Source: Verrucomicrobiota bacterium (GTDB lineage Bacteria; Verrucomicrobiota; Verrucomicrobiia; JABWAM01). Taken from it: DNA of 64,000 bases. The position numbers were made by a program, and so were the translations under genes. The stretch is from assembly GCA_023269615.1 (NCBI GenBank), contig JAHFSY010000015.1, forward strand, positions 1 to 64,000, in the 5' to 3' direction. This document shows positions 560-51,587 of the stretch, in pieces; within the stretch, counting starts at the first letter, position 1; every line of letters starts with the position of its first letter. Below the pieces are notes generated by a model. That model did not search any database. It was not told where the DNA came from and saw nothing but the letters and a program-made list of their open reading frames with translations.

Positions 560-3466
560 ATGATAACCGATCAACCTTCCGGCCAGATGAGTCTCAGCGG
601 TGTGGATCCCCTGCATGCGGCGGAGTTTCACATCACCAAGCGCAACGGACGGCGTGATCTTTTCAACGAGGAGCGTATTTATCTGGCGATCGAGAGCGCT
701 TTCAAGGCGGAGGCTGGGGTGACGGATGCCCGCGAACTTTCAGCCGCCGAAGCCGAGCATGTGCGTGTCACGGGTGAGAAGGCGGTCAACCTTGCCCTGG
801 GCAAGCTGGTGCATGGTGAGCGGGTGCAGGTGGAGCAGATTCAGGACATCGTGGAGGCGCAGTTGATGGCCGATGGTCATCATTCGGTGGCACGCCGCTA
901 CATTTTGTATCGCGAGGAGCGCAAGAAGGCCCGCCTGACTCCCATCGCTCCCATGGCGGATGGGGTGCCTGCGGAGGCGGCTTCCAGGGAGGCAACGGCG
1001 GATGGTTTGGAACCTGTCCAGACTGCCGCCCCCGAGTTCATCACGCATCGTGATGGCTCGAAGCAACGATTCGACGCCGACCGCATCCTGCGCGCGGTGG
1101 AGAGCGCTTGCAAGGGATTCGAGGACAGGGTGTCTGCGAAGGAGATTGTCGCGGAGTCCATCAAGAATTTGTACGAGGGCGTCAGCTCGGCGGAAATTGA
1201 CAAGTCCAACATCATGGCCGCCCGCGCACGCATCGAGCGCGAGCCCGTCCACACGCACGTGGCTGCGCGCCTCCTGCTGCAGATCATTTACCGCGAGGCG
1301 CTGCCGCAGGGCGATGTCGCGCAGACGCACGCCGCTCATTTCAAGGATTATCTTGCCGAGGGCGTGAAGCTGGGCAGGCTTTCGAAGGACCTGCTTGATT
1401 TTGACCTCAAGAAAATCGCCGGCGCGATGAAGACCGAGCGCGACATGCAGTTCACGTACATGGGTCTGCAGACACTCTATGACCGCTACCTCATCCACCA
1501 GGGGCAGCGCCGCGTCGAGACGCCGCAATATTTCTGGATGCGTGTTTCCATGGGCCTCGCCTTGCGCGACAGCGCGCCGCGGGAGGATCGCGCGATCGAA
1601 TTTTACGACACGCTTTCACAGTTCCGCTTCATCTCGTCCACGCCCACGCTGTTCAATGCAGGCACCCTGCATCCGCAGCTGAGCTCCTGCTACCTTTCGA
1701 CGGTGATGGATGACCTCGATCATATTTTCAAGGTGGTGTCCGATGATGCCAAGCTTTCGAAGTGGGCGGGCGGACTTGGCAATGACTGGACGAACATCCG
1801 CGCCACGGGAGCCTACATCAAGGGCACCAACGGTGAAAGCCAGGGCGTGATTCCATTCCTCAAGGTGGCCAACGACACCGCGGTGGCTGTCAACCAGGGC
1901 GGAAAGCGCAAGGGCGCGATGTGCGCGTATCTTGAGACGTGGCACCTGGACATCGAGGATTTCATGGAGCTGCGCAAAAACACCGGCGACGAGCGCCGCC
2001 GCACGCACGACATGAACACGGCGAACTGGATCCCCGATCTCTTCATGAAACGCGTGGCTGCCAAGTCCCACTGGACGCTTTTCAGCCCGAGCGAGACGCC
2101 CGACCTGCATGATCTCTACGGCGCGGCCTTCGAGAAGCGTTATCACGAATATGAGGCGATGGCTGAGCGCGGCGAATTGCGTCAGGCCAAAAAGATCGAG
2201 GCGATTTCACTGTGGCGCAGGATGCTCTCGATGCTGTTTGAGACGGGGCATCCATGGATCACGTTCAAGGACCCATCCAACATCCGTTCGCCGCAGGACC
2301 ATGCCGGCGTGGTGCACAGCTCCAATCTTTGCACGGAAATCCTCCTCAACACGTCGAAGGACGAGACCGCGGTGTGCAATCTAGGCTCGGTGAACCTGCT
2401 CGCGCACACGACCGAGAAGGGACTCGACGAGAAGCTTGTTGCGAAGACCGTCAAGACGGCCATACGCATGCTCGACAACGTGATTGACATCAATTTTTAC
2501 CCGACGCCCGAGGCGCATGCGGCGAACATGCGGCATCGCCCTGTCGGGCTGGGCGTGATGGGATTCCAGGACGCGCTCTACAAATTGCGCATCAGCTACG
2601 CGAGCGAGAAGGCGGTGGAATTCGCCGACCGCAGCATGGAAATGATCTCCTACTACGCGATCCTGGCCTCGACGGAGCTTGCGAAGGAGCGGGGGCCGTA
2701 CCCGAGCTTCCCCGGCTCAAAGTGGGACAAGGGCCTGCTGCCGATTGACACGCTGGATATTCTTGCGCGCGAGCGCGGCGGATTCTTTTTCGTGGACCGT
2801 TCCACCTCGATGGATTGGACCGTCGTCCGCAAGGCGCTGAAAAAGCACGGCATGCGCAACAGCAACACGATGGCGATCGCGCCGACGGCCACGATCTCAA
2901 ACATCACCGGCGTGGCGCAATCCATCGAGCCCACGTACAAGCATCTCTTCGCCAAGTCGAATCTCTCGGGCGAATTCGCGACCCTGAACACCTTCCTTTT
3001 CGAAGACCTCAAGGCGCTCAACCTATGGGACGCGGAGATGATCGACGACCTCAAGCATTTCGACGGAACGATCATGGACATCGAGCGCATTCCGCTCGAG
3101 CTCAAGGAGATTTACGTGACGGCGTTTGAGATGGATCCCAAGTGGCTCATCGAGTGCGCGAGCCGCCGCCAGAAGTGGATTGATATGGGCCAGTCTCTGA
3201 ATTTGTATCTCGCCGCGCCCAGCGGAAAGAAGCTGCACGACATGTATTTTCTGGCGTGGGAAAAGGGGCTCAAGACGACCTACTATTTGCGCACCCTCGC
3301 TGCGACGCAGATTGAGAAATCCACCATGGACGTCAACCGCCGCGGCATCCAGCCGCGCTGGATGAAAAACAAGTCCGCGTCCAGCAACATCGCCGTGCAG
3401 CGCGTCCCCTCGCCGCAGCCCAAGGCGTGCAGTCTCGAGGATCCCACGTGCGAAAGCTGCCAATAA
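560..3466 (+). CDS. nrdA: Class Ia ribonucleoside-diphosphate reductase alpha subunit with N-terminal ATP-cone(s)
   Basis: ORF 425-3466. Internal ATG at 560 chosen as start. ATP-cone motifs ([24 protein letters not shown]; [22 protein letters not shown]). Catalytic-site NLCTEI motif and C-terminal CESC redox tail. The overall layout parallels E. coli NrdA. Confidence 0.9.
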
Positions 3467-3515
3467 ATTTCCTGCCGATCTTTCGTTTTTTAAAACTTCA
3501 ACACTCACAAAACCT

Positions 3516-4580
3516 ATGGCCTGCTGCACCGTTGCCGAAACTCCCGCCGAACTTCACGACCTCACCAAGCGTCTCAATCCCCAGGACAAAAGCCTGATCA
3601 ACTGTCGCGCGGCGGACGTCAACCAGCTCATGCCGCTGAAATACAGCTGGGCATGGGAACATTATCTCAACGGCTGTGCCAACCACTGGATGCCCACCGA
3701 GGTGGCGATGGGGCGCGACATTGAACTGTGGAAATCAAACAAGCTCACCGATGCCGAGCGGCACGTCATCATGCGCAACCTCGGATTTTTCAGCACGGCC
3801 GAAAGCCTCGTCGGCAACAATATCGTGCTCGCCATCTTCAAGCACCTCACCAATCCCGAGGCGCGCCAGTACCTGCTGCGACAGGGCTTCGAGGAAGCCA
3901 TTCACACCCACACGTTCCATTACATTGTCGAATCCCTTTCGCTCGACCAGCGGGAGGTCTTCAACATGTACCACGAGGTCAATTCCATTCATGACAAGGA
4001 TGTCTTCGAGATCGCTCTTACGGAAGACCTGATGAAACCTGAGTTTACGACGGAAACCTTCGAGGGCAAACAGAAGTTCCTTGAAAATCTCGTCGGCTTC
4101 TACGTCATCATGGAGGGCATCTTTTTCTACAGCGGCTTCGTGATGATCCTCTCGTTTCACCGGCAGAACAAGATGACGGGCATCGGCGAGCAGTTCCAAT
4201 ACATCATGCGCGACGAGACGGTTCACCTGAACTTCGGCATTGATCTGATCAACACGCTCAAGGAGGAGAACCCTGAGATCTGGACAAAGGGTTTTCAGGA
4301 CACCCTCGTGGCGAAAATTCGCGAGGCCGTGGAACTCGAAATCACTTACGCGGAGGATTGCCTGCCCCAGGGGATTCTTGGATTGAACGCGTCCCTCTTC
4401 CGCGACTACGTGCAGCACATCGCCGACCGCCGCCTCGAGCGCATCGGCCTCCCGGTCCAGTACGGTTCGCGCAACCCTTTCCCATGGATGAGCGAGACGA
4501 TTGACCTCGGAAAGGAAAAGAATTTCTTCGAGACCCGCGTCACCGAGTACCAGACCTCCGGCGCGCTGAGCTGGGAGTAA
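3516..4580 (+). CDS. nrdB: Ribonucleotide reductase beta subunit (di-iron/tyrosyl radical)
   Basis: Lies 50 bp downstream of nrdA. Carries the EEAIHTHTF and [12 protein letters not shown] motifs typical of R2 proteins. Confidence 0.9.
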
Positions 4581-4582
4581 GG

Positions 4583-4740
4583 AAAGCTGCTGGCTTCTGG
4601 CTTCTAGCCACTAGAACTGATGTGTGACCCACGAGAAATCGTCTGGTTGAACGAATGGCTCCGTATAAGTGAAACGGCGATCTTCTTTCCTATAGTGAGC
4701 AATCCGTCCCAGCAGCTAGTGGCTAGAAGCTAGCAGCTCC
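4583..4740. repeat. Long imperfect inverted repeat between nrdB and dcd (about 22-28 bp arms around a 100-bp spacer)
   Basis: gctgctggcttctggcttctagccactag ... ctagtggctagaagctagcagc can be read directly in the sequence. Could be a terminator, attenuator or small palindromic element. Confidence 0.4.
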
Positions 4741-4746
4741 CCTCCC

Positions 4747-5301
4747 ATGAGCCTCCTCCCCGACCACTGGATTGAGCGCCTGGTAAAGAGCCATCGCATG
4801 ATCGAGCCTTTCGCCCGCAGGCAAGTTCGCAAGGGTTGCATCAGCTATGGCGTGTCGTCCTACGGCTACGACCTTCGCGTGGCGGATGAGTTCAAGGTCT
4901 TCACCAACGTGCACGGTGTGCTGGTGGATCCCAAGAAATTTAATCCGCGCTCCTTTGTCGAGATCAAGGCCGGGGAATGCATCGTGCCGCCGAACAGCTT
5001 TGCGCTCGCGCGCAGCGTGGAATATTTCCGCATCCCGCGCAACATCCTTACGCTGTGCGTCGGCAAATCCACCTACGCGCGTTGCGGGATCATCGTCAAT
5101 GTGACCCCCTTCGAGCCGGAGTGGGAGGGGCAGGTGACCCTCGAAATTTCAAACACCACGCCGTTGCCTGCCAAAATCTACGCCAATGAAGGCATCGCCC
5201 AGGTGCTCTTCTTCGAGGGAAAAGAGGAATGCCGCGTCTCGTACAAGGACCGCAAGGGCAAGTACCAGGGCCAGCGCGGAATCACCGTGCCCAAACTCTA
5301 A
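4747..5301 (+). CDS. dcd: dCTP deaminase
   Basis: N-terminus [12 protein letters not shown]...SYGYDLRV and the overall 184-aa length match the Dcd family. Confidence 0.9.
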
Positions 5302-5305
5302 TTTT

Positions 5306-5418
5306 TGTAGGAGCCGCTGTCAGCGGCGATTTCCGCACCGACCTATCCCGCCCGCCTGCGTGGCCGTAGCCACTTCGGCGTGGCGAAGGCCCGGTCGCCG
5401 CTGACAGCGGCTCCTACA
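5306..5418. repeat. REP-like palindromic element, family A
   Basis: Terminal inverted repeat tgtaggagccgctgtcagcggcga / tcgccgctgacagcggctcctaca. Related copies at 30943-31053 and 58535-58622, and a half copy at 17164-17190. Confidence 0.65.
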
Positions 5419-5495
5419 TTTCGAAATTACATATGCAAATGGGAGCCCCCGGCCCCCTGCGGCGCTTCGCAGAAGCGCCTCTACATCCCGACACT

Positions 5496-6191
5496 TCAAC
5501 TTTTGCCCTTTGCCTCTTGCCCTTTGCCTTTTGCCTTCACGTCCGATTTCTCCGCATCCGCCGCGCGCCAGAGATACCAGGCCGCGAGCGTGCGATGGGG
5601 CGCCCAGCGTTTGGAATGCTCTCGAAGCACGGACGGCTTGGGCATGTCGTCAAGTTTCATCGCGACGCGGAAACCGTTGCGCACGCCAAAGTCATCGCAG
5701 GGGAACACATCCTTCCGCCCCAATGTGAAGATGAGGAGCATTTCCACCGTCCAGCGGCCCACGCCATGAACCTCGATGAGGCGGGCGATGAGTTCATCGT
5801 CGCTTAGCTTTATCGCTTTCGCACGGGTGGGCACCAGGCCGCTTTGAGTTTTCTCCGCAATGTCGCGAATCGCCCGGATTTTTCCAAAGGAGAATCCGGC
5901 GCTGCGCAACTTTTTGTCGCTCGCCGTCATGATGTGCGCTGGTTTTGGGAAGCGCGTGCCGGGGAACAACGCCTTGAATCGACGCAGGATGGACTGGGCC
6001 GCCTTGCCGTTGAGCTGCTGATGCGCGACTGCGTTGACGAGAGCCTCATAAGGCGAGCGCTTCTCGGCGACGAGATCGCACGGCCCATGCGTCTTGATGA
6101 GGCGGCGCATGATCTTGCAGCGGTTCGAAAGATGGGATTCAGCTTTGGAGGACATCTGCGACTTAAACCACAGGCGTCCGGAAATCACCAC
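5496..6191 (-). CDS. HhH-GPD family DNA glycosylase (3-methyladenine glycosylase II / AlkA-like)
   Basis: Helix-hairpin-helix GPD motif region HGVGRWTVEMLLIFTLGRKDVFPCDDFGVRNG. The true start may be internal, possibly near 6110. Confidence 0.75.
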   Translation of the reverse strand: MVISGRLWFKSQMSSKAESHLSNRCKIMRRLIKTHGPCDLVAEKRSPYEALVNAVAHQQLNGKAAQSILRRFKALFPGTRFPKPAHIMTASDKKLRSAGFSFGKIRAIRDIAEKTQSGLVPTRAKAIKLSDDELIARLIEVHGVGRWTVEMLLIFTLGRKDVFPCDDFGVRNGFRVAMKLDDMPKPSVLREHSKRWAPHRTLAAWYLWRAADAEKSDVKAKGKGQEAKGKS

Positions 6192-9690: not shown

Positions 9691-9721
9691 CTTCATCCCT
9701 CATCCCTCATCCTTCATCCTT
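9691..9721. repeat. Heptanucleotide tandem array (ctcatcc / ggatgag units)
   Basis: cttcatccctcatccctcatccttcatcc, 60 bp upstream of glgC. The same unit recurs inside mutL at 17773-17800. Confidence 0.7.
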
Positions 9722-12369: not shown

Positions 12370-14469
12370 TTACGCGGCCTCCTTTTTTGGAGCGGGCTCC
12401 CCTGCGGATTTGGGTGAATCCAGTCCCAATCCCGCCTTCTCGCTCACGAGGAGCGAGAGCAGCTGGTTGAGAAGGCCCAACGCCGGGCTCTCCTTTCCAT
12501 TTTGTCCTCCCATCACGAACAGGCGTTCGGGCACCAGTGGTTGTGTGCTGTGGCTCAGTTTGTCGGAGACAAGGCTCAATGCATAGAGCTTCGGGTCGGT
12601 GAACGCCTTCACTTTTTGCAGCGACACGGCGGCTTCGGCCATGCCGACTTGCGACGTTCTTGATGCTTCGCCTTTGCCCAGCAGTTCCTGCGAGCGGGAC
12701 TGACCCTGGGCCAGTTCCACATCGCGTTGCGCGAGACCCCGGGCTTCCGCCAGCTGGGCGTTGCCCCGGTTCTCTGCCACCTCGATGTTGATCTTGGTCT
12801 GCGTGAGTTCCGCCTGCTTGTCCGCGATGGCGCGGGCCTCGTTCAACTGCTTGAGCTGCATCGCCGCTTCCTGCTGCTTTGCGAACGTGGCCATCTGCTC
12901 CTGGGCCAGTCGCCGCGTGCGAAGCTGGTCGAAGAGCTGGTCAATCGGCTCGGGCCCATCCTTGACCTCATTCTTGGAATGGGGCCGTCCGATCAGGACC
13001 GCCACGCAGTTGATGTCGAATTCCTTGAAACGCCGCCCCAGTTCCTGGGTGGCCCGGCCCTGGATTTCCTCGCGCTTGGTAAGGAGGTCCAGCATGTTGG
13101 AGCTCTGCGCCACGTCACGGAAGTACGCCGTGAGGATGGGATCAAGCGTCTGGCTGATGAGACGTTTCACATCGCCAAAACGCTGCACCACGCTTGGCGC
13201 CTTCTCGTAGTCAATGTGCAGGACGAGCGAGAGCGGCATCACCGGCTCGTAACCATCCGCCGTGATGAGCTCCACGCTTGTGAGGTCCTTGTCGTACTGG
13301 TGCATCTCGACCTGGCCGGTGATCCAGCGCAGGACGAAGTTCACCGTCGGCACGAGCTCCACCTTCAACGCATACGGGTTGAGCGCGTATTTGCCGGGCA
13401 CGAGCGCCTGGCGCCACACGCCCCTCTGGTTGTGCTCCACCTGCTCGCCGTAACGGAACGAGTGGCCCGTGACGTCCACCCCCCTCGTGCCGTAGTACGA
13501 CACGACCACGCCCACGTACCCGATCGGGATGAGCGTCTTCGGCTTGATCTCGACCGTGGCAAACCAACGGTTGATGAAGAAGGTGCCGTCGGTGAGCACC
13601 TGCAACTGCTTGCCGCGCTTGCCTCCCAGGGAGAGAAACATCTCGGGATCCTGGAAGTAGTTGTGACTGCGTTCTTCATTCGTCGGAATCTCCGGCGCGA
13701 TGATCTCTCCCGATTCGATTGAGTGACCATCGTGCACGGTCACCACCCCGAGCGTGTCATTGAACGGGAGCTGGACCTCAATGCCCTTTTTCTCCAGCGC
13801 CTGGCCCAGGCCATGTTCCTTGCCGGCGTCGCCGATCACCACGGGACGGAATCCACCGATGACCGCGAGTTGCTCCTGCCAGACATGATACGGCGTGTCC
13901 TTGTTGTCGCGTGCGGAGCCTTCAAACACACGGTCCTCCGTGATCACCACGAAGAGGGCGAGGTTGATGGCGAACACGCCTTCGCGCAGGATCGCGCGCT
14001 GGCGCCCGCGCTGGCCGCCATTGGCCAGGAACGCCTGTGCATCCTGGAAGTGGTTGCAATCCACGGTGCGGCCGAGCGTTTGTGTCGGGGGCAGCGGTTG
14101 TCCGTCACGCGCGTACACGTAGCCGATCTGGCCCTCGCCCACGAAGACGAGGGGCAGCTTGTGGATACGGTACTGCCATGGGAAATAATTCAGGTGGACA
14201 CCGCCACGCAGAATTTCCCCCTGAAACCCGGCCTCGCCGTGGAGGGCGATAATGGCGCCGTCCTTGAGCGAGCCGGCATTGGACCAGAGCTTTTCCACGG
14301 TGCCGATCCGTCCGTGCGGAATGTAGCGGACACCCGAAAGCCAGATGCCCGTGATGGCCAGCGCGGTGAGTGTGAGCGGGTGGTGAATTCCAAAATACAC
14401 CACCAAACCTGCAAGGAACGCGATGAGCGCTCCCATCAATGTGAATACTTTCATAACTCTCCTTTCCAT
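12370..14469 (-). CDS. SPFH/band-7 flotillin-like membrane protein (699 aa) with an internally duplicated N-terminal module
   Basis: N-terminal TM helix. SPFH-like core (ELITADGYEPV...KAPSVVQRFG...LDPILTAYFRDVAQ). C-terminal flotillin-type EA-rich coiled coil (AQLAEARGLAQRDVELAQ). Duplicated segment: CNHFQDAQAFLANGGQRGRQRAILREGVFAIN vs HNYFQDPEMFLSLGGKRGKQLQVLTDGTFFIN. Confidence 0.6.
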   Translation of the reverse strand: MERRVMKVFTLMGALIAFLAGLVVYFGIHHPLTLTALAITGIWLSGVRYIPHGRIGTVEKLWSNAGSLKDGAIIALHGEAGFQGEILRGGVHLNYFPWQYRIHKLPLVFVGEGQIGYVYARDGQPLPPTQTLGRTVDCNHFQDAQAFLANGGQRGRQRAILREGVFAINLALFVVITEDRVFEGSARDNKDTPYHVWQEQLAVIGGFRPVVIGDAGKEHGLGQALEKKGIEVQLPFNDTLGVVTVHDGHSIESGEIIAPEIPTNEERSHNYFQDPEMFLSLGGKRGKQLQVLTDGTFFINRWFATVEIKPKTLIPIGYVGVVVSYYGTRGVDVTGHSFRYGEQVEHNQRGVWRQALVPGKYALNPYALKVELVPTVNFVLRWITGQVEMHQYDKDLTSVELITADGYEPVMPLSLVLHIDYEKAPSVVQRFGDVKRLISQTLDPILTAYFRDVAQSSNMLDLLTKREEIQGRATQELGRRFKEFDINCVAVLIGRPHSKNEVKDGPEPIDQLFDQLRTRRLAQEQMATFAKQQEAAMQLKQLNEARAIADKQAELTQTKINIEVAENRGNAQLAEARGLAQRDVELAQGQSRSQELLGKGEASRTSQVGMAEAAVSLQKVKAFTDPKLYALSLVSDKLSHSTQPLVPERLFVMGGQNGKESPALGLLNQLLSLLVSEKAGLGLDSPKSAGEPAPKKEAA

Positions 14470-14789
14470 GCCATCGAGGCATGAAAGAGCCTGCCCCCTG
14501 CGGAAAGGCAGACGGGTTGCGTGAAGGACTTGAGAGACTTTCGGACTCTTTTTGCCCTTGGTGTAGAGCTGACGAGGTTAGCTGTCGGGCTAGGGCCTTC
14601 CAAGTGCCCCTGGCACACCGCAGTGCCATGCGCCCCGATCCGCCTTCGCGGAATAAGTGGGTCCCCCGCTGGCCGGACACGGCGTCCAGCCATTAAGCGT
14701 GCAAAGAACTACAGTACTAGTACCACACTTTGGACAAAGCGCAAGTGGACGGGGCGCGTAGCTGCGTTCGCAAGAACACGGCCCGAGAC

Positions 14790-17203: not shown

Positions 17204-19012
17204 TCACGGCCTGCGGCCGAATTTCTTTTCCAGTTCCGCGAGGGTGAGGCGCAGGATCGTGGGGCGGCCGTGCGGGCAGGTGAGCGGGTGGGCGCAGGCT
17301 TGCAAATCGGAGAGCATCCGTTCCAGCTCCTCCCGTCGCAGCACGTCGTTGGCTTTCACGGCGTGACGACACACCGTCTTCGCCACGGTTTCCTCGGCGA
17401 AGCGGTCACGGTTGACGCCCTTCCCGGCTTCATCCAGTTGATCGAGAATGGACCGCATGAGTTGCGGGATGGTTTCGATCTTCACGAAGGGCGGCACGGC
17501 GTCCACGATAAAACTGCGGTCGCCGAATTCTGCGATGCCAAACCCCATTTTTTCCAGGAGGGGCAGCCGCGTGCGCAGCTCGATGGCGTCACGCGGCGGC
17601 AATTCCACCGTCTGGGGCAGCAGGAGGCGCTGCGAAGGCGCGGTGCCCTTCGCCATCCGCGCCATCATCTGGTCGAACAAAATCCGCTCGTGCGCCGCAT
17701 GCTGGTCCACGATGAGCAATCCTTCCTTGTCCATCGCAACCACGTAGAGGTTGGCGACAACGCCCAGAATCAAAGGATGAGGGATGAGGGATGAGGGATG
17801 AAGGGGGAGGTTGGGGATTTGAGATTTAAGATTTGAGATTTGAGATTCGGGAACAAGCGGCTGCTGAGCTGGAACCACGGGGCTTGTCGCAAACTGATTC
17901 TGGATTCTGGATTCTGCCTCCTGCCTCCTGCCTCCTGCCTCCTGCCTCCTTCCCCCTTCCTTTCCGAACCTCATTTCCAAGGGCGCTTGCGGCTGCGTGC
18001 TGCCCGCCGATGTTCCCAGCGCGCGGCGGACGGCCTCGATGATGCAGCCCTGCACCCGGGCGTCCTCGCGAAAACGCACCTCGCGCTTGGCGGGATGAAT
18101 GTTCACATCCACGGACGCCGGGTCCACGTCGAGAAAAAGAAAGCAGACGGGATAACGCCCGCGCATCAACGACGTGTGATATCCCTCGATGAGGCCATAA
18201 TAGATGGCGCGGCTGTCCACGGGACGCGAATTCACATAGCAGTAAAGTTCGCTTCGGTTGGAGCGGCTCAGCCCCGGCTTGCCGATGAGGCCGCGGATCT
18301 TCACGCCTTCGCGCGCAAAATCAACCGGCACGAGTTGCGACGCAAGTTGCGGCCCATGCAACGCCCGCACGCGCGCCAGCAGCGCCGCCTGCGGATCACC
18401 TGCGGCCGAGGGCGCCAGTTCGTGAATGAGGCGTTCATCCTGGTGAAGCGTCCACGCGATGTGCGGCTGGGCGATGGCGTGCAACAGGAAGACGTGATGC
18501 AGGTGTCCGAGCTCCGTGGGATCGGAGCGCAAAAATTTCCGGCGGGCGGGAAGGTTGTAAAAAAGATTTCTCACCTCGACCTGCGTGCCGGGCGCGCACC
18601 CGGCCTCCTTCACCGCGAGCAGTTTGCCGCCGTGGATGTCCACCTCCACGCCGGCGGGCGCCGCGGGTTCGCGCGAGAGCAGGCGGAATCGCGAAACCGA
18701 GGCGATGCTCGGGATGGCTTCGCCGCGAAACCCGAGCGTATGGATCGAGCCGATGTCCGCCGAGTCATGAATCTTGCTCGTGGCATGGCGTTCGATGCAG
18801 AGGAGCGCGTCATCCTTCCCCATCCCATGCCCGTTGTCGCCCACGCGGATGATGCTTTTGCCGCCGCCGCGGATTTCGATGCGGATGGCCGTGGCCTGTG
18901 CATCAATCGCATTTTCCACAAGCTCCTTGAGGACGGAAGCGGGACGCTCGATCACCTCGCCGGCGGCGATCTGGTTTGCGACGAGGTCAGGCAGGATTCG
19001 GATGCGGTTCAC
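17204..19012 (-). CDS. mutL: DNA mismatch repair protein MutL
   Basis: N-terminal GHKL ATPase (QIAAGEVIERPASVLKELVENAIDA). C-terminal dimerisation domain (LIVDQHAAHERILF). The linker is encoded largely by heptamer tandem repeats. Confidence 0.9.
   Translation of the reverse strand: MNRIRILPDLVANQIAAGEVIERPASVLKELVENAIDAQATAIRIEIRGGGKSIIRVGDNGHGMGKDDALLCIERHATSKIHDSADIGSIHTLGFRGEAIPSIASVSRFRLLSREPAAPAGVEVDIHGGKLLAVKEAGCAPGTQVEVRNLFYNLPARRKFLRSDPTELGHLHHVFLLHAIAQPHIAWTLHQDERLIHELAPSAAGDPQAALLARVRALHGPQLASQLVPVDFAREGVKIRGLIGKPGLSRSNRSELYCYVNSRPVDSRAIYYGLIEGYHTSLMRGRYPVCFLFLDVDPASVDVNIHPAKREVRFREDARVQGCIIEAVRRALGTSAGSTQPQAPLEMRFGKEGGRRQEAGGRRQEAESRIQNQFATSPVVPAQQPLVPESQISNLKSQIPNLPLHPSSLIPHPLILGVVANLYVVAMDKEGLLIVDQHAAHERILFDQMMARMAKGTAPSQRLLLPQTVELPPRDAIELRTRLPLLEKMGFGIAEFGDRSFIVDAVPPFVKIETIPQLMRSILDQLDEAGKGVNRDRFAEETVAKTVCRHAVKANDVLRREELERMLSDLQACAHPLTCPHGRPTILRLTLAELEKKFGRRP
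17773..17950. repeat. Three heptanucleotide tandem arrays inside the mutL linker-coding region
   Basis: 17773-17800 (ggatgag)n. 17814-17848 (gatttga/gatttaa)n. 17899-17950 attctgg attctgc (ctcctgc)x4. On the coding strand they translate to GGRRQEAGGRRQEA...SQISNLKSQIPNLPLHPSSLIPHP. Confidence 0.8.
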
Positions 19013-19026
19013 TTCCGCAGGCTAGG

Positions 19027-19075
19027 ATGGAAATGGGAAAATGGGAAATAGGAAATAGCCGATAGCCAATGGCCA
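19027..19075. repeat. Heptamer tandem arrays in the mutL / crtI-like divergent intergenic region
   Basis: ggaaatg ggaaaatg ggaaata ggaaata gccgata gccaatg gccaat. Confidence 0.65.
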
Positions 19076-19145
19076 ATCACTGATTGGAAAAAAGTCCATT
19101 TTGGCTTTTTCCCTGCCGACTCTCCTGCTACATCTTCCCATCCTT

Positions 19146-20654
19146 ATGGCAAAACGTGCGATCATCATTGGTGCAGGGCTGGGCGGCATGGCCGCGGCGA
19201 TCCGGCTTGCCCGCGATGGCTGGAGCGTGAAGGTCCTGGAAAAGAATGTACGCGTCGGTGGGAAACTGGACTGCCACAGCGACCACGGGTTTCTCTGGGA
19301 CGCGGGGCCTTCGCTGGTGACGATGCCCTTTGTTCTGCGCGAGCTCTTCGAGTACGCGGGGCACGACGTGGAGGATTACCTGGACCTGATGCCGGTGGAT
19401 CCGATCTGCCGCTATTTTTATCCCGACCGCAAGGTGATCAACGCGTGGGCGAATTTCCATCATTTCCAGATCGAGGTGGCGCGACGCGAGAAGGACCACG
19501 GCGAGGCGCTTGAGGGTTTCCTGCGTTACGCCCGCGGCATCTACGATCTCTCGGCGGAGGCGCATCTCTTTCACCCGCCCACGAATTTCCTCGGATATTT
19601 CACGCCTCGCATTCTCCGTCACCTGCATCATCTGCCGAAGGTGCTGACGACGCGCACGATGGCCCAGGTGGTGGAGAGCCATTTCAAGGACCCCCACATT
19701 CGCCAGCTTTTCATGCGCTACGCCACGTACAACGGCTCGTCGCCCTATCGCATTCCCGCGACGTTCAACATCATTCCCTATGTCGAGATGCAAGGGGGCG
19801 GCTGGTACATCCGCGGCGGGATGTACCGCCTGGCCGAGGCGCTGGAGAAATGCGCGAGGGATCTGGGCGTGGATTTTCTCGTGGACGCCGAGGTCTCGGA
19901 AATCACGCTCAAGGAGCGCGGGCTCTTTCGCAAGCCGCAGGCGACGGGCGTGATCATCCAGGGCGGCGTCTCCATGAGCGCCGAGGTTGTGATCTGCAAC
20001 GCGGATGCGAACCATGTCTGGGCACGGCTCCTGAACACGCGGAAGAAGGCGGGCGTGACGCGCCAGAACGACCGCAAGCCATTTTCGAGCGCGCCCTTCA
20101 TGATGCTTTGGGGCGTGAAAAAGCGTTACGAGCAACTCGCGCATCACAACGTCTTTTTCTCCCCGGATTATCTCGCGGAGTTCGACGATCTTTTCCAGAA
20201 GAAGCGCCCGGCGACGGAGCCCACGGTGTACGTGTGCGTGTCATCGCGCTCCGATGCCACCCAGGCGCCGCAGGGGCAGGACAATTATTTTGTGCTGGTG
20301 AACGCGCCTGCGATCGAGCCCGACCATCATTGGGAGCGCACGCGCGAATCGTATCGCGACACGGTGCTCAACCGCCTGGAGGCGATGGGGCTGGAGGGCT
20401 TGCGGAAGGAGATTGTCTGCGAGAAGATCATCACGCCGGCTGATTTTGCCGCGCGCAACAACGCATACCGCGGGGCGATCTACGGCCACGCCACTCATTC
20501 GTTGTCGGGCGTGGTGAACCGTCCCGCCAATTGTTGCGACTGGGTGAAGGGGCTTTATTTTGTGGGCGGCTCCACGCAGCCGGGCGGCGGCATTCCGCTG
20601 GTGCTTCTTTCCGCCAAGCGCGTGGCCGAGGCCCTGGATGGCGGCGGAGAATGA
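19146..20654 (+). CDS. Phytoene desaturase-family FAD-dependent oxidoreductase (CrtI/CrtD-like)
   Basis: N-terminal dinucleotide-binding motif IIIGAGLGGMAAAIRLARDGWSVKVLEKNVRVGGK. C-terminal GGSTQPGGGIPLVLLSAKRVAEAL typical of the CrtI family. Confidence 0.8.
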   Translation: MAKRAIIIGAGLGGMAAAIRLARDGWSVKVLEKNVRVGGKLDCHSDHGFLWDAGPSLVTMPFVLRELFEYAGHDVEDYLDLMPVDPICRYFYPDRKVINAWANFHHFQIEVARREKDHGEALEGFLRYARGIYDLSAEAHLFHPPTNFLGYFTPRILRHLHHLPKVLTTRTMAQVVESHFKDPHIRQLFMRYATYNGSSPYRIPATFNIIPYVEMQGGGWYIRGGMYRLAEALEKCARDLGVDFLVDAEVSEITLKERGLFRKPQATGVIIQGGVSMSAEVVICNADANHVWARLLNTRKKAGVTRQNDRKPFSSAPFMMLWGVKKRYEQLAHHNVFFSPDYLAEFDDLFQKKRPATEPTVYVCVSSRSDATQAPQGQDNYFVLVNAPAIEPDHHWERTRESYRDTVLNRLEAMGLEGLRKEIVCEKIITPADFAARNNAYRGAIYGHATHSLSGVVNRPANCCDWVKGLYFVGGSTQPGGGIPLVLLSAKRVAEALDGGGE

Positions 20655-20664
20655 CCCCTCTGCC

Positions 20665-21492
20665 ATGGATGCCGAACCCCATCCGCCTTCTGGAACCAGG
20701 CTCGGCAAAGTGGCGTTGGGGATTTGCTCATTTCTTTACCTGGCATGGTACGCGGGCGGATGGGTCATCTTCACCACGGGCTGGTTTTCGACGAACGACA
20801 AGGTCCTCGTCTCAGGCTGGGGCGATTGCGTTTTCCTGTCGCTTGCCGGATTGCTGACGCTGCTCATCGCGCGACGCGATTTTGGCTGGAAGGAACTCGT
20901 TGAGGTCACGGTCTTCGTGCTGCTCGGTTCGGCCGCCGTGGAAATTGTCGGCGTGAAATCCGGTTTCCCGTTTGGCAAGTACATGTACACGGAGAGTCTC
21001 GGCGCACACATCGGCGGCATTCCATGGATCATCCCCGTTTGCTGGTTCATCCTGGTCATCAACGCCTACATCATCTGCTCCGTGCTGGTCGTGCCGCGCG
21101 AGGGGGAGATTTCGCGCGATGCGCTGGTCCTGCTGATCCTCATCACGTCGGTGGTGGTGACGCTCGTGGACTTGAACCTGGAACCCGTGGCGGTGAATGT
21201 GAAGCAGTATTGGTCCTGGATGGACCGCGATCGCGCGTTTTACGGCGTGCCGCGGATCAACTTCTTCGGCTGGTTCAGCGTCTCGCTGATCCTCGTGAGC
21301 GCGTTGTGCCACATGCTGGACCCGAGGCGATGGAAACTCTCCACGGCATGGGGAAGCCTTTGTCTGCTTGGCAGCATCCAGCTCTTTTTTGCCGTCATGA
21401 ACTGGCAGGCCCACCAGTATGCCCCGGTGCTCATCTCCCTCAACCTCATCGGCATCCTTGCAATCGGGCTGGCGTACCTCTCCGGAAAATAA
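20665..21492 (+). CDS. DUF422-type carotenoid-associated integral membrane protein
   Basis: Polytopic membrane protein immediately downstream of the crtI-like gene; the ATG overlaps its TGA stop. Family assignment is from context and length. Confidence 0.5.
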   Translation: MDAEPHPPSGTRLGKVALGICSFLYLAWYAGGWVIFTTGWFSTNDKVLVSGWGDCVFLSLAGLLTLLIARRDFGWKELVEVTVFVLLGSAAVEIVGVKSGFPFGKYMYTESLGAHIGGIPWIIPVCWFILVINAYIICSVLVVPREGEISRDALVLLILITSVVVTLVDLNLEPVAVNVKQYWSWMDRDRAFYGVPRINFFGWFSVSLILVSALCHMLDPRRWKLSTAWGSLCLLGSIQLFFAVMNWQAHQYAPVLISLNLIGILAIGLAYLSGK

Positions 21493-29432: not shown

Positions 29433-29464
29433 ATTCTGGATTCTGGCTCCTGACTCCTGTCTCC
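29433..29464. repeat. Heptamer array attctgg attctgg ctcctga ctcctgt ctcc
   Basis: Same unit composition as the array inside mutL (17899-17950). A reverse-complement relative lies at 51556-51587. Confidence 0.6.
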
Positions 29465-51555: not shown

Positions 51556-51587
51556 GGAGTCAGGAGTCAGGAGACAGGAGTCAGAAT
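51556..51587. repeat. Heptamer array ggagtca ggagtca ggagaca ggagtca gaat
   Basis: Reverse-complement relative of the 29433-29464 array and the mutL internal array. Confidence 0.6.

Follow-up and report, generated by a model that had tools for sequence, protein, structure and literature searches.

Heptanucleotide repeat arrays in the interdomain linker of a verrucomicrobial mutL: a plausible slippage-driven mutator switch

Background

The control of mutation rate in nature is a long-standing question that has been studied almost entirely in pathogens and in laboratory evolution. A 64,000-nt stretch of a Verrucomicrobiota genome (GenBank assembly GCA_023269615.1, contig JAHFSY010000015.1, positions 1 to 64,000; hereafter the window) raises this question at its mismatch-repair (MMR) gene mutL, where tandem arrays of 7-bp units fill much of the segment that joins the two domains of the encoded protein. 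Could the gain and loss of such units turn repair off and on, as an original prediction made from the window had proposed, or are the arrays just tolerated members of a genome-wide microsatellite family? Here we show by sequence comparison that a heptamer-array architecture recurs specifically in mutL across several phyla, where it occupies the linker, an N-terminal-domain loop and the 5′ region. We lean, with reservations, towards reading the linker heptamers as a reversible slippage-driven mutator switch, selected or not, that is built on heptamer microsatellites in a disordered linker.

Repeats within mutL have a precedent, as a 6-bp × 3 repeat in the gene of Salmonella and E. coli switches it by slippage between functional and defective alleles (Chen et al. 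2010, PMC2955026), and this switch (6bp-delta-mutL) was proposed to modulate mutability reversibly. The same work surveyed mutL and mutS in more than 100 species and found mostly mono- and trinucleotide repeats, not heptamers (PMC2955026). The earlier remark that repeat switches are rare in MMR genes is fair, although one is known, that of the Salmonella/E. coli mutL. Phase-variable heptamers are established in Haemophilus influenzae, where they occur in the hmw1A and hmw2A promoters and within ORFs (open reading frames; AATTTTG × 14, AACAACC × 8–13), where the phase-variable tracts have 13–38 units and where switching was shown experimentally for the hmw promoters (PMC2651432). According to two further papers, both citing Mrazek 2007, no class of long simple repeats is commoner in many bacteria than the heptamers, which are mostly intergenic, and genome-wide examples include the cyanobacterial STRR, GGGAATC in Xanthomonas and TAACTGA in Beggiatoaceae (PMC4692102, PMC4679880). 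No literature linking mutL with heptanucleotide repeats was found by a search that covered few subscription journals.

An endonuclease-type MutL with four heptamer arrays in its linker

The features of the mutL locus, with tandem arrays called by Tandem Repeats Finder (TRF), are as follows:

17204–19012, minus strand: mutL coding sequence (ORF list), GTG start, 602 amino acids (aa), endonuclease-type MutL
18017–19012, minus strand: N-terminal GHKL ATPase and DNA_mis_repair domains, aa 1–332 (Pfam; AlphaFold2 predicted local distance difference test, pLDDT, mostly >85)
17768–18016, minus strand: disordered interdomain linker, aa 333–415, 83 aa (between the Pfam domains; AlphaFold2)
17914–17961, minus strand: array A, CTGCCTC on the plus strand, coding GAGGCAG, × 6.9, 92%, 5 perfect units, encodes GGRRQEAGGRRQEA (TRF; perfect-run count; translation)
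17896–17916, minus strand: array B, GATTCTG on the plus strand, coding CAGAATC, × 3.0, 100%, encodes ESRIQNQ (TRF)
17816–17847, minus strand: array C, GATTTGA on the plus strand, coding TCAAATC, × 4.6, 92%, encodes SQISNLKSQI (TRF; translation)
17775–17801, minus strand: array D, GGATGAG on the plus strand, coding CTCATCC, × 3.9, 100%, encodes HPSSLIPHP (TRF)
17207–17767, minus strand: C-terminal dimerisation/endonuclease domain, aa 416–602 (Pfam MutL_C)
19029–19056, no strand: upstream array GGAAATG × 3.9, 17–44 nt before the mutL start codon (TRF)
19054–19077, no strand: upstream array AATAGCC × 3.4, in the divergent intergenic region between mutL and a crtI-like gene (TRF)

All four linker arrays lie inside the ORF 17204–19012 (minus strand), span aa ~351–413 and account for 125 of the 249 nt of the linker; the perfect run is 3 units long in D, 2 in C, 3 in B and 5 in A. 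The linker had been described as built from three arrays; TRF and direct reading bear out its heptamer make-up and raise the count to four, as one tract resolves into GATTCTG × 3 followed by CTGCCTC with 5 perfect and 2 degenerate units. The coding strand reads the arrays in all three phases, which gives 7-aa motifs, and the mutL gene is intact. TRF found no 6-bp array anywhere in the window, and the only non-heptamer row within mutL has a period of 12 (18362–18385); a 6-bp repeat in the N-terminal domain, of the Salmonella/E. coli kind, is absent. The RNA of the window linker folds no better than shuffled sequences (z = +0.6).

The protein itself carries the hallmarks of a MutL with endonuclease activity. 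Pfam matched HATPase_c_3 (1e-08) and DNA_mis_repair (2.8e-36) within aa 22–332, i.e., the GHKL ATPase and the transducer, as well as MutL_C at aa 416–557 (1.3e-35). In the C-terminal part, the translation contains DQHAAHERILFD, in which the final acidic residue is D and not the E of DQHA(X)2E(X)4E, together with CPHGRP, which is invariant across the homologue alignment, and the protein is therefore assigned to the MutH-independent, endonuclease type. Homologues begin with MNRIRILPD at the position matching its start. Among 35 homologues the linker is hypervariable in the alignment, and AlphaFold2, run with a 35-sequence alignment as input, left aa 338–410 without secondary structure (pLDDT <50) and folded both domains confidently.

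The nearest named homologues come from metagenome-assembled genomes (MAGs) of Verrucomicrobia, the best non-self identity is ~70–76%, and the 90%-identity cluster of this MutL has a single member. The exact protein was found on just two contigs, the window and an ENA contig (L001); these align over 7809 nt and differ there at a single position, 16197, which lies outside mutL; both assemblies therefore have the same arrays.

Effect of a one-unit slip

The addition or removal of one unit was simulated in each of the four arrays, and in every case the product was 397–476 aa long with the C-terminal domain never in frame, which confirms the predicted frameshift ahead of that domain. Units whose length is not a multiple of three in an ORF or promoter, as expected of a contingency locus, are present here as two upstream arrays and four within the ORF. 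Of the two alternative frames, one runs without a stop from array A through D and the other from A into C, and therefore a shift in one array could in principle be compensated by another. A compensated slip of this kind would leave the spacer between the two arrays read in a different frame.

Heptamers in the mutL linker compared with other coding DNA

In order to find out how widely this architecture is shared, 96 non-redundant mutL loci were compared (the window, 11 loci from genomes, 80 from an alignment-seeded metagenome scan and 5 from exact look-ups), with linker bounds set by tblastn using the two MutL domains of the query; distant MutLs (31–42% identity), obtained by a single-protein genome scan, served as out-group controls. 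Arrays with periods of 7, 14 or 21 were present in 16 of the 96 linkers. The density of period-7 arrays was 1.19/kb in the linkers compared with 0.11/kb elsewhere in mutL and 0.09/kb in the flanks (906 kb), while triplet-multiple and other periods were just ~2-fold enriched in the linkers. Carriers included 9 of 14 Verrucomicrobia-like loci, the Desulfobacterales loci L053 and L047, and a third group of four (L049, L067, L076, L097). Some arrays are long, such as CGCAACC × 16.6 and CGCAGCT × 10.7 in L053, CAATCGG × 9.6 in L032 and AACCCGC × 8.1 in L047. Relatives of the window gene use different units in the corresponding linker; in P0008 and P0013 (homologue DNA L021 and L023), the end of the linker that corresponds to array D carries related arrays. 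Five carriers from genomes and contigs illustrate this:

L020 (P0005), Verrucomicrobia: linker TTCAACG × 3.7, the sole period-7 array in 21.9 kb
L021 (P0008), Verrucomicrobia: three linker arrays including TCATCCT × 4.3, which lies at the array-D end of the linker
L023 (P0013), Verrucomicrobia: linker ATCATCC × 5 and GCAACCC × 6.4
L024 (P0043), 51% identity: linker AATTTGA × 4.4, the sole one in 21.7 kb
L002, Opitutus MAG, 42% identity: two linker arrays, the only ones in 17.5 kb

As a control for disorder, 701 genes were called in the flanks of the mutL loci and disorder-like segments were marked with a composition scale. Period-7/14 arrays (score ≥40) were found in 0 of 243 such segments (35.8 kb) as opposed to 14 of 96 mutL linkers (Fisher p = 1e-8), and within the 16 array-bearing loci in 0 of 37. 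The alternative of a tolerated genome-wide microsatellite family stands in part: the heptamers are genome-wide and mostly intergenic, yet across lineages they are specifically concentrated in the linker of mutL. Judged by sequence, the hot-spot pattern is stronger than had been suspected from the window.

A second hot spot was found in mutL itself, in a variable loop of the N-terminal domain (aa ~225–272), with arrays such as the perfect CTCAAAT × 4.0 of L032 and CAGCCCC × 6.3 of L088:

L029, 4026–4050
L030, 1565–1591
L032, 2237–2264
L088, 3569–3612
L100, 2320–2344

Two coding arrays outside mutL were seen, both in DNA-repair genes, namely a helicase in L067 and an HhH-GPD glycosylase in the window, and these numbers are small. 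The helicase array (L067 5588–5648, period 7/21, in ORF 3405–6002, minus strand) lies in a DEAD/MrfA-Zn/HNH DNA-repair helicase, in a variable segment between motif Ib and the YDGDT motif, and is the sole internal coding heptamer array found outside mutL. In the linkers of L049 (2640–2783) and L067 (11080–11175), two arrays are reverse-complementary to each other and form long hairpins (minimum free energy, MFE, –51.6 kcal/mol, z = –4.7, and –29.3 kcal/mol, z = –3.3, respectively).

A synthetic 7-aa-repeat query against a set of 5.8 billion proteins was uninformative about mutL specificity, as most of its top 120 matches were gene calls on long intergenic arrays, annotated either as small ORFs or as extensions of an N-terminus. 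Two loci considered as split mutL genes (L081, L101) were rejected, their N- and C-terminal domains sharing one frame.

Length variation and out-of-frame alleles in homologues

Counting unit numbers in related genomes had been proposed as a check, and the outcome differs between groups: the Desulfobacterales homologues show unit-number polymorphism at the linker, while the two assemblies of the window gene are identical. A linker was scored as repetitive at a given lag when it held at least 3 identical residues in a row at that lag. In Desulfobacterales, 87 of 120 MutL linkers scored at lag 7 compared with 0–5 of 120 at lags 4, 5, 6, 8, 9 and 10. The Verrucomicrobia set gave a weaker signal (21 of 115 at lag 7, 8–12 at lags 4, 6, 8, 9 and 10, and 28 at lag 5). 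The 90%-identity clusters of Desulfobacterales contained 15 linker indels that were 4 aa or longer, and 10 of these measured exactly 7, 14 or 21 aa, i.e., 3, 6 or 9 units, and in eight control clusters that lack arrays all full-length members were equal in length.

Two Desulfobacterales contigs carry mutL genes that are split by a frame change inside an AACCCGC array (L113, an 11.7-kb ENA contig, and L115, a 3.2-kb JGI contig). In both, the N-terminal frame is correct before the array, the C-terminal domain that follows is out of register by one base (modulo three), and one added AACCCGC unit would restore the frame. In the protein P0418, the spacer between two arrays is read in another frame, with the same residues as frame 1 of L115.

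Other candidates were set aside. P0010 and P0012, considered as a pair with the same DNA in different frames, are both read in the same frame; their flanks are ~97% identical, the linker core is scrambled and they differ by a 36-nt indel. C-terminal-domain-only ORFs of 190 aa (11 in 7 clusters) were not counted as split OFF alleles because the contig of one of them, L114, merely begins inside the linker, in frame. Many public 190-aa ‘MutL’ entries start at a conserved Met of the C-terminal domain (clusters of P0208, P0129, P0137 and others), and at least some of them arise from contigs that break in the repeat-rich linker. In practice, the arrays break assemblies and split gene calls, which leaves 190-aa C-terminal fragments and ‘partial’ MutL entries in databases. 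A further Desulfobacterales mutL (L112 2211–4050, on a 16.6-kb contig) is split by a ~59-nt deletion in the N-terminal domain that removes FIYVNGRFVRDR...ALFE, and represents either an array-independent defective allele or a mis-assembly.

Arrays upstream of mutL

The two upstream arrays of the window span 17–65 nt 5′ of the GTG start, in a gap of 133 bp (19013–19145) between mutL and the divergent crtI-like oxidoreductase gene; heptamer arrays had been predicted in this region and are indeed there, in a gap wider than the 90 bp assumed. Counting the window, 13 of the 96 loci have period-7 arrays in the 300 nt that precede mutL, and across the survey loci 22 period-7 TRF rows were found in 27.6 kb upstream of mutL compared with 5 in 26.8 kb downstream. 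A promoter scan of the mutL/crtI gap found no sigma-70-like promoter, and an Rfam scan of the mutL region matched no family. The gap also contains a perfect palindrome, CCAATCA-c-TGATTGG (19073–19087), that overlaps the end of the AATAGCC array and could be an operator site. The gene order mutL, divergent crtI-like oxidoreductase and carotenoid-synthesis protein is conserved between the window (17204–21492) and L020 (7536–11890), the MutL of which is ~71–75% identical to that of the window.

Period-7 repeats across the window

Window TRF rows were counted at a score of at least 30, and 14 rows of period 7 were obtained where third-order Markov shuffles predict 2.0. No excess was seen at periods 8, 10 and 11, and period 9 was raised, as coding DNA predicts; period 7 is the only over-represented non-triplet period. 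When only perfect arrays of at least 3 copies and periods of 4–12 were considered, the 64 kb contained just three, all of them period-7 arrays of the linker. The 10 period-7 rows outside mutL sit between genes or at gene ends, and those away from the mutL locus start at 4586, 5500, 9691, 11107, 12251, 29443, 36909 and 51556. If rotation and strand are allowed for, 3 of the 4 linker units have an intergenic counterpart that is one base off (A with 29443 and 51556, B with 4586, D with 9691). The original prediction had placed the same units at 9691, 29433 and 51556; arrays are present there, the second one from 29443, but with one-base variants of the units. The heptamers of the window are of several units, over-represented and mainly intergenic, as in STRR-like repeats; its genome therefore carries the known heptamer class of simple repeats, to which the linker arrays belong.

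Two of the other arrays deserve a brief description. The heptamer CTGACTC/GGAGTCA is arrayed in opposite orientation at 29443–29464 and 51556–51584, 22 kb apart, one array being upstream of an M24 peptidase-like gene and the other between the convergent DUF1501 and rpoN genes. In the HhH-GPD base-excision glycosylase gene (5496–6191, minus strand), the last ~12 codons (VKAKGKGQEAKGKS*) consist of the heptamer array at 5500–5537 (CTTTTGC × 5.4 on the plus strand), where changes in unit number would affect the tail alone.

Discussion

In the reading towards which we lean, the length of the linker arrays would change by replication slippage, single-unit slips would truncate MutL and give rise to MMR-null mutator cells, and further slips would restore the frame. 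Frameshifted intermediates may persist, since mutators hitchhike with the beneficial mutations that they generate, and mutL would be the one gene in which heptamer arrays could be born and grow, unlike other coding linkers. A 7-bp array that is born in an ORF needs out-of-frame intermediates or multi-unit events, which implies some tolerance of mutL-OFF states. Most genes would lose such intermediates to purging, whereas cells survive without functional mutL and the null allele can spread by hitchhiking, which would explain why arrays are found in mutL and not in other linkers. From work in E. coli and Haemophilus, MutS is not known to correct loops longer than ~4 nt, so that heptamer slippage would be independent of the repair state and switching would be symmetric. 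For the class of mutL-heptamer loci, a mutator switch is thus plausible and partly supported, by the polymorphism and the two out-of-frame alleles in Desulfobacterales; for the window mutL, with its single in-frame allele and short tracts, on/off switching is only inferred. As its tracts have 2–5 perfect units, switching in the window genome is probably infrequent.

Several points weigh against this reading. The window gene is represented by an in-frame allele only, identical in two assemblies, with no polymorphism and no OFF allele, and alleles of the OFF kind were found only in the homologues L113 and L115, both of them from metagenome assemblies, where polymorphic repeats can mis-assemble. 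The same populations also contain mutL lesions outside the arrays (P0384; L112). The tracts of the window are short, 2–5 perfect units as opposed to 13–38 units in the established tracts of H. influenzae (PMC2651432). In the survey, the two domains are in one frame in all 94 fully comparable loci, a set that is biased towards intact genes, and the composition predictor behind the disorder control is crude, as it flags about half of the MutL linker residues and ~1–5% of the residues in the MutL domains. Lastly, the data do not separate a selected switch from a by-product of tolerated mutator episodes. That the mutL heptamers of the linker, the N-terminal loop and the 5′ region are a conserved, selected ON/OFF mutator switch, largely MMR-independent and common to Verrucomicrobia, Desulfobacterales and other environmental lineages, is put forward only tentatively, as less likely than not. 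If true, this would be a contingency locus in a housekeeping gene that is widespread outside host-adapted pathogens and whose state can be read from metagenomes.

The arrays might instead be passive passengers, neutral products of genome-wide heptamer slippage that survive in the least constrained long coding segment, with frameshift alleles as ordinary deleterious mutations that are purged and with no biologically relevant mutator switching. We consider this less likely than the switch, but the likeliest of the alternatives. The ten other period-7 arrays of the window lie in or at the edge of intergenic DNA, with units one base from those of the linker; heptamers are reported as a mostly intergenic class and the commonest of the long simple repeats in many bacteria (PMC4692102, PMC4679880); small hypothetical ORFs from many phyla often contain these 7-aa motifs as well; and the short tracts of the window, together with the presence of in-frame consensus alleles only in the 94 fully comparable survey loci, also speak for it. 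Against it, other disorder-like segments carried arrays in none of 243 cases as opposed to 14 of 96 mutL linkers, and three loci (L020, L024, L002) are array-free elsewhere in 17–22 kb and yet have arrays in the mutL linker. The second hot spot in the N-terminal loop, the excess directly upstream of mutL, and the tolerated OFF states implied by the in-frame birth of a 7-bp array argue in the same direction.

It is improbable that the repeats are selected for a property of the encoded 7-aa linker (charge, flexibility, a partner-binding motif) or as a cis-acting DNA or RNA site (protein binding, hairpins). The motif ATRNPQL is shared by Verrucomicrobia L023 and Desulfobacterales L053/L047, and SNLKSQI-like motifs by the window, L024 and L002, but any unit has to lack stop codons in each of its three phases, which by itself leads one to expect such recurrence; moreover, relatives with 70% identity have very different units, arrays already turn over among members of a 90% cluster, and the motifs contain Pro and Gly and sit in a region that AlphaFold2 leaves unstructured. 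The hairpins of L049 and L067 (z = –4.7 and –3.3) would fit a selected DNA or RNA form, against which stands the window linker with its RNA no more stable than shuffles. Least probable of all, to the point of being hardly credible, is that the arrays or their unit numbers are artefacts of assembly or sequencing: short tandem repeats do mis-assemble and several contigs break in the linker (L114; the C-terminal-domain-only ORFs), but across the arrays the window does not differ by a single base from an ENA contig that was named independently, homologous arrays appear again in contigs that differ in sample and source (L021/L022, L024–L027), and arrays of 21–48 nt are far below read length.

The proposed mutator switch resembles known systems in part. 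It shares with the Salmonella/E. coli switch a short tandem repeat inside mutL and, putatively in the window, a copy-number change by slipped-strand mispairing; it differs in having 7-bp units, several arrays and a location in the disordered linker, where a slip truncates the protein by frameshift. The 6-bp repeat of Salmonella and E. coli is reportedly located in the ATP-binding N-terminal domain, and loss of a unit, which stays in frame, is said to give a full-length but defective protein. With H. influenzae the locus has in common 7-bp units in a promoter or ORF, where in the latter case a unit change shifts the frame; there, however, tracts are long and belong to surface and uptake genes of a host-adapted pathogen, whereas here 3–7 units lie in a housekeeping repair gene of environmental bacteria. 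As in STRR-type repeats, the heptamers come in several unit types, exceed other periods in frequency and are mostly found between genes, often near gene ends; those accounts stress under-representation in coding DNA and do not mention mutL (PMC4692102, PMC4679880), while here arrays recur in one coding linker.

Repeats within MMR genes are slippage targets in human tumours too, where coding mononucleotide tracts of MSH3 and MSH6 are hit when microsatellites are unstable and the instability follows prior MMR loss. The mutL arrays are comparable as targets and unlike these mononucleotide runs in that 7-nt loops are expected to escape bacterial MutS, so that slippage would be MMR-independent. If the mutL arrays do toggle repair, mutator dynamics in soil and sediment could be measured by counting array-length alleles in reads, and the idea of a repeat switch of the Salmonella type would extend to a different mechanism in distant phyla. 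They would also represent a route to building disordered linkers, since translation of a 7-bp unit in its three phases yields a motif of 7 aa.

Additional features of the window

A c-di-AMP riboswitch (RF00379; 59.7 bits, E = 2.6e-11) was identified at 14552–14709 on the minus strand, upstream of the minus-strand ORFs 14451–14693 and 12370–14469, the latter encoding an SPFH/Band 7 protein.

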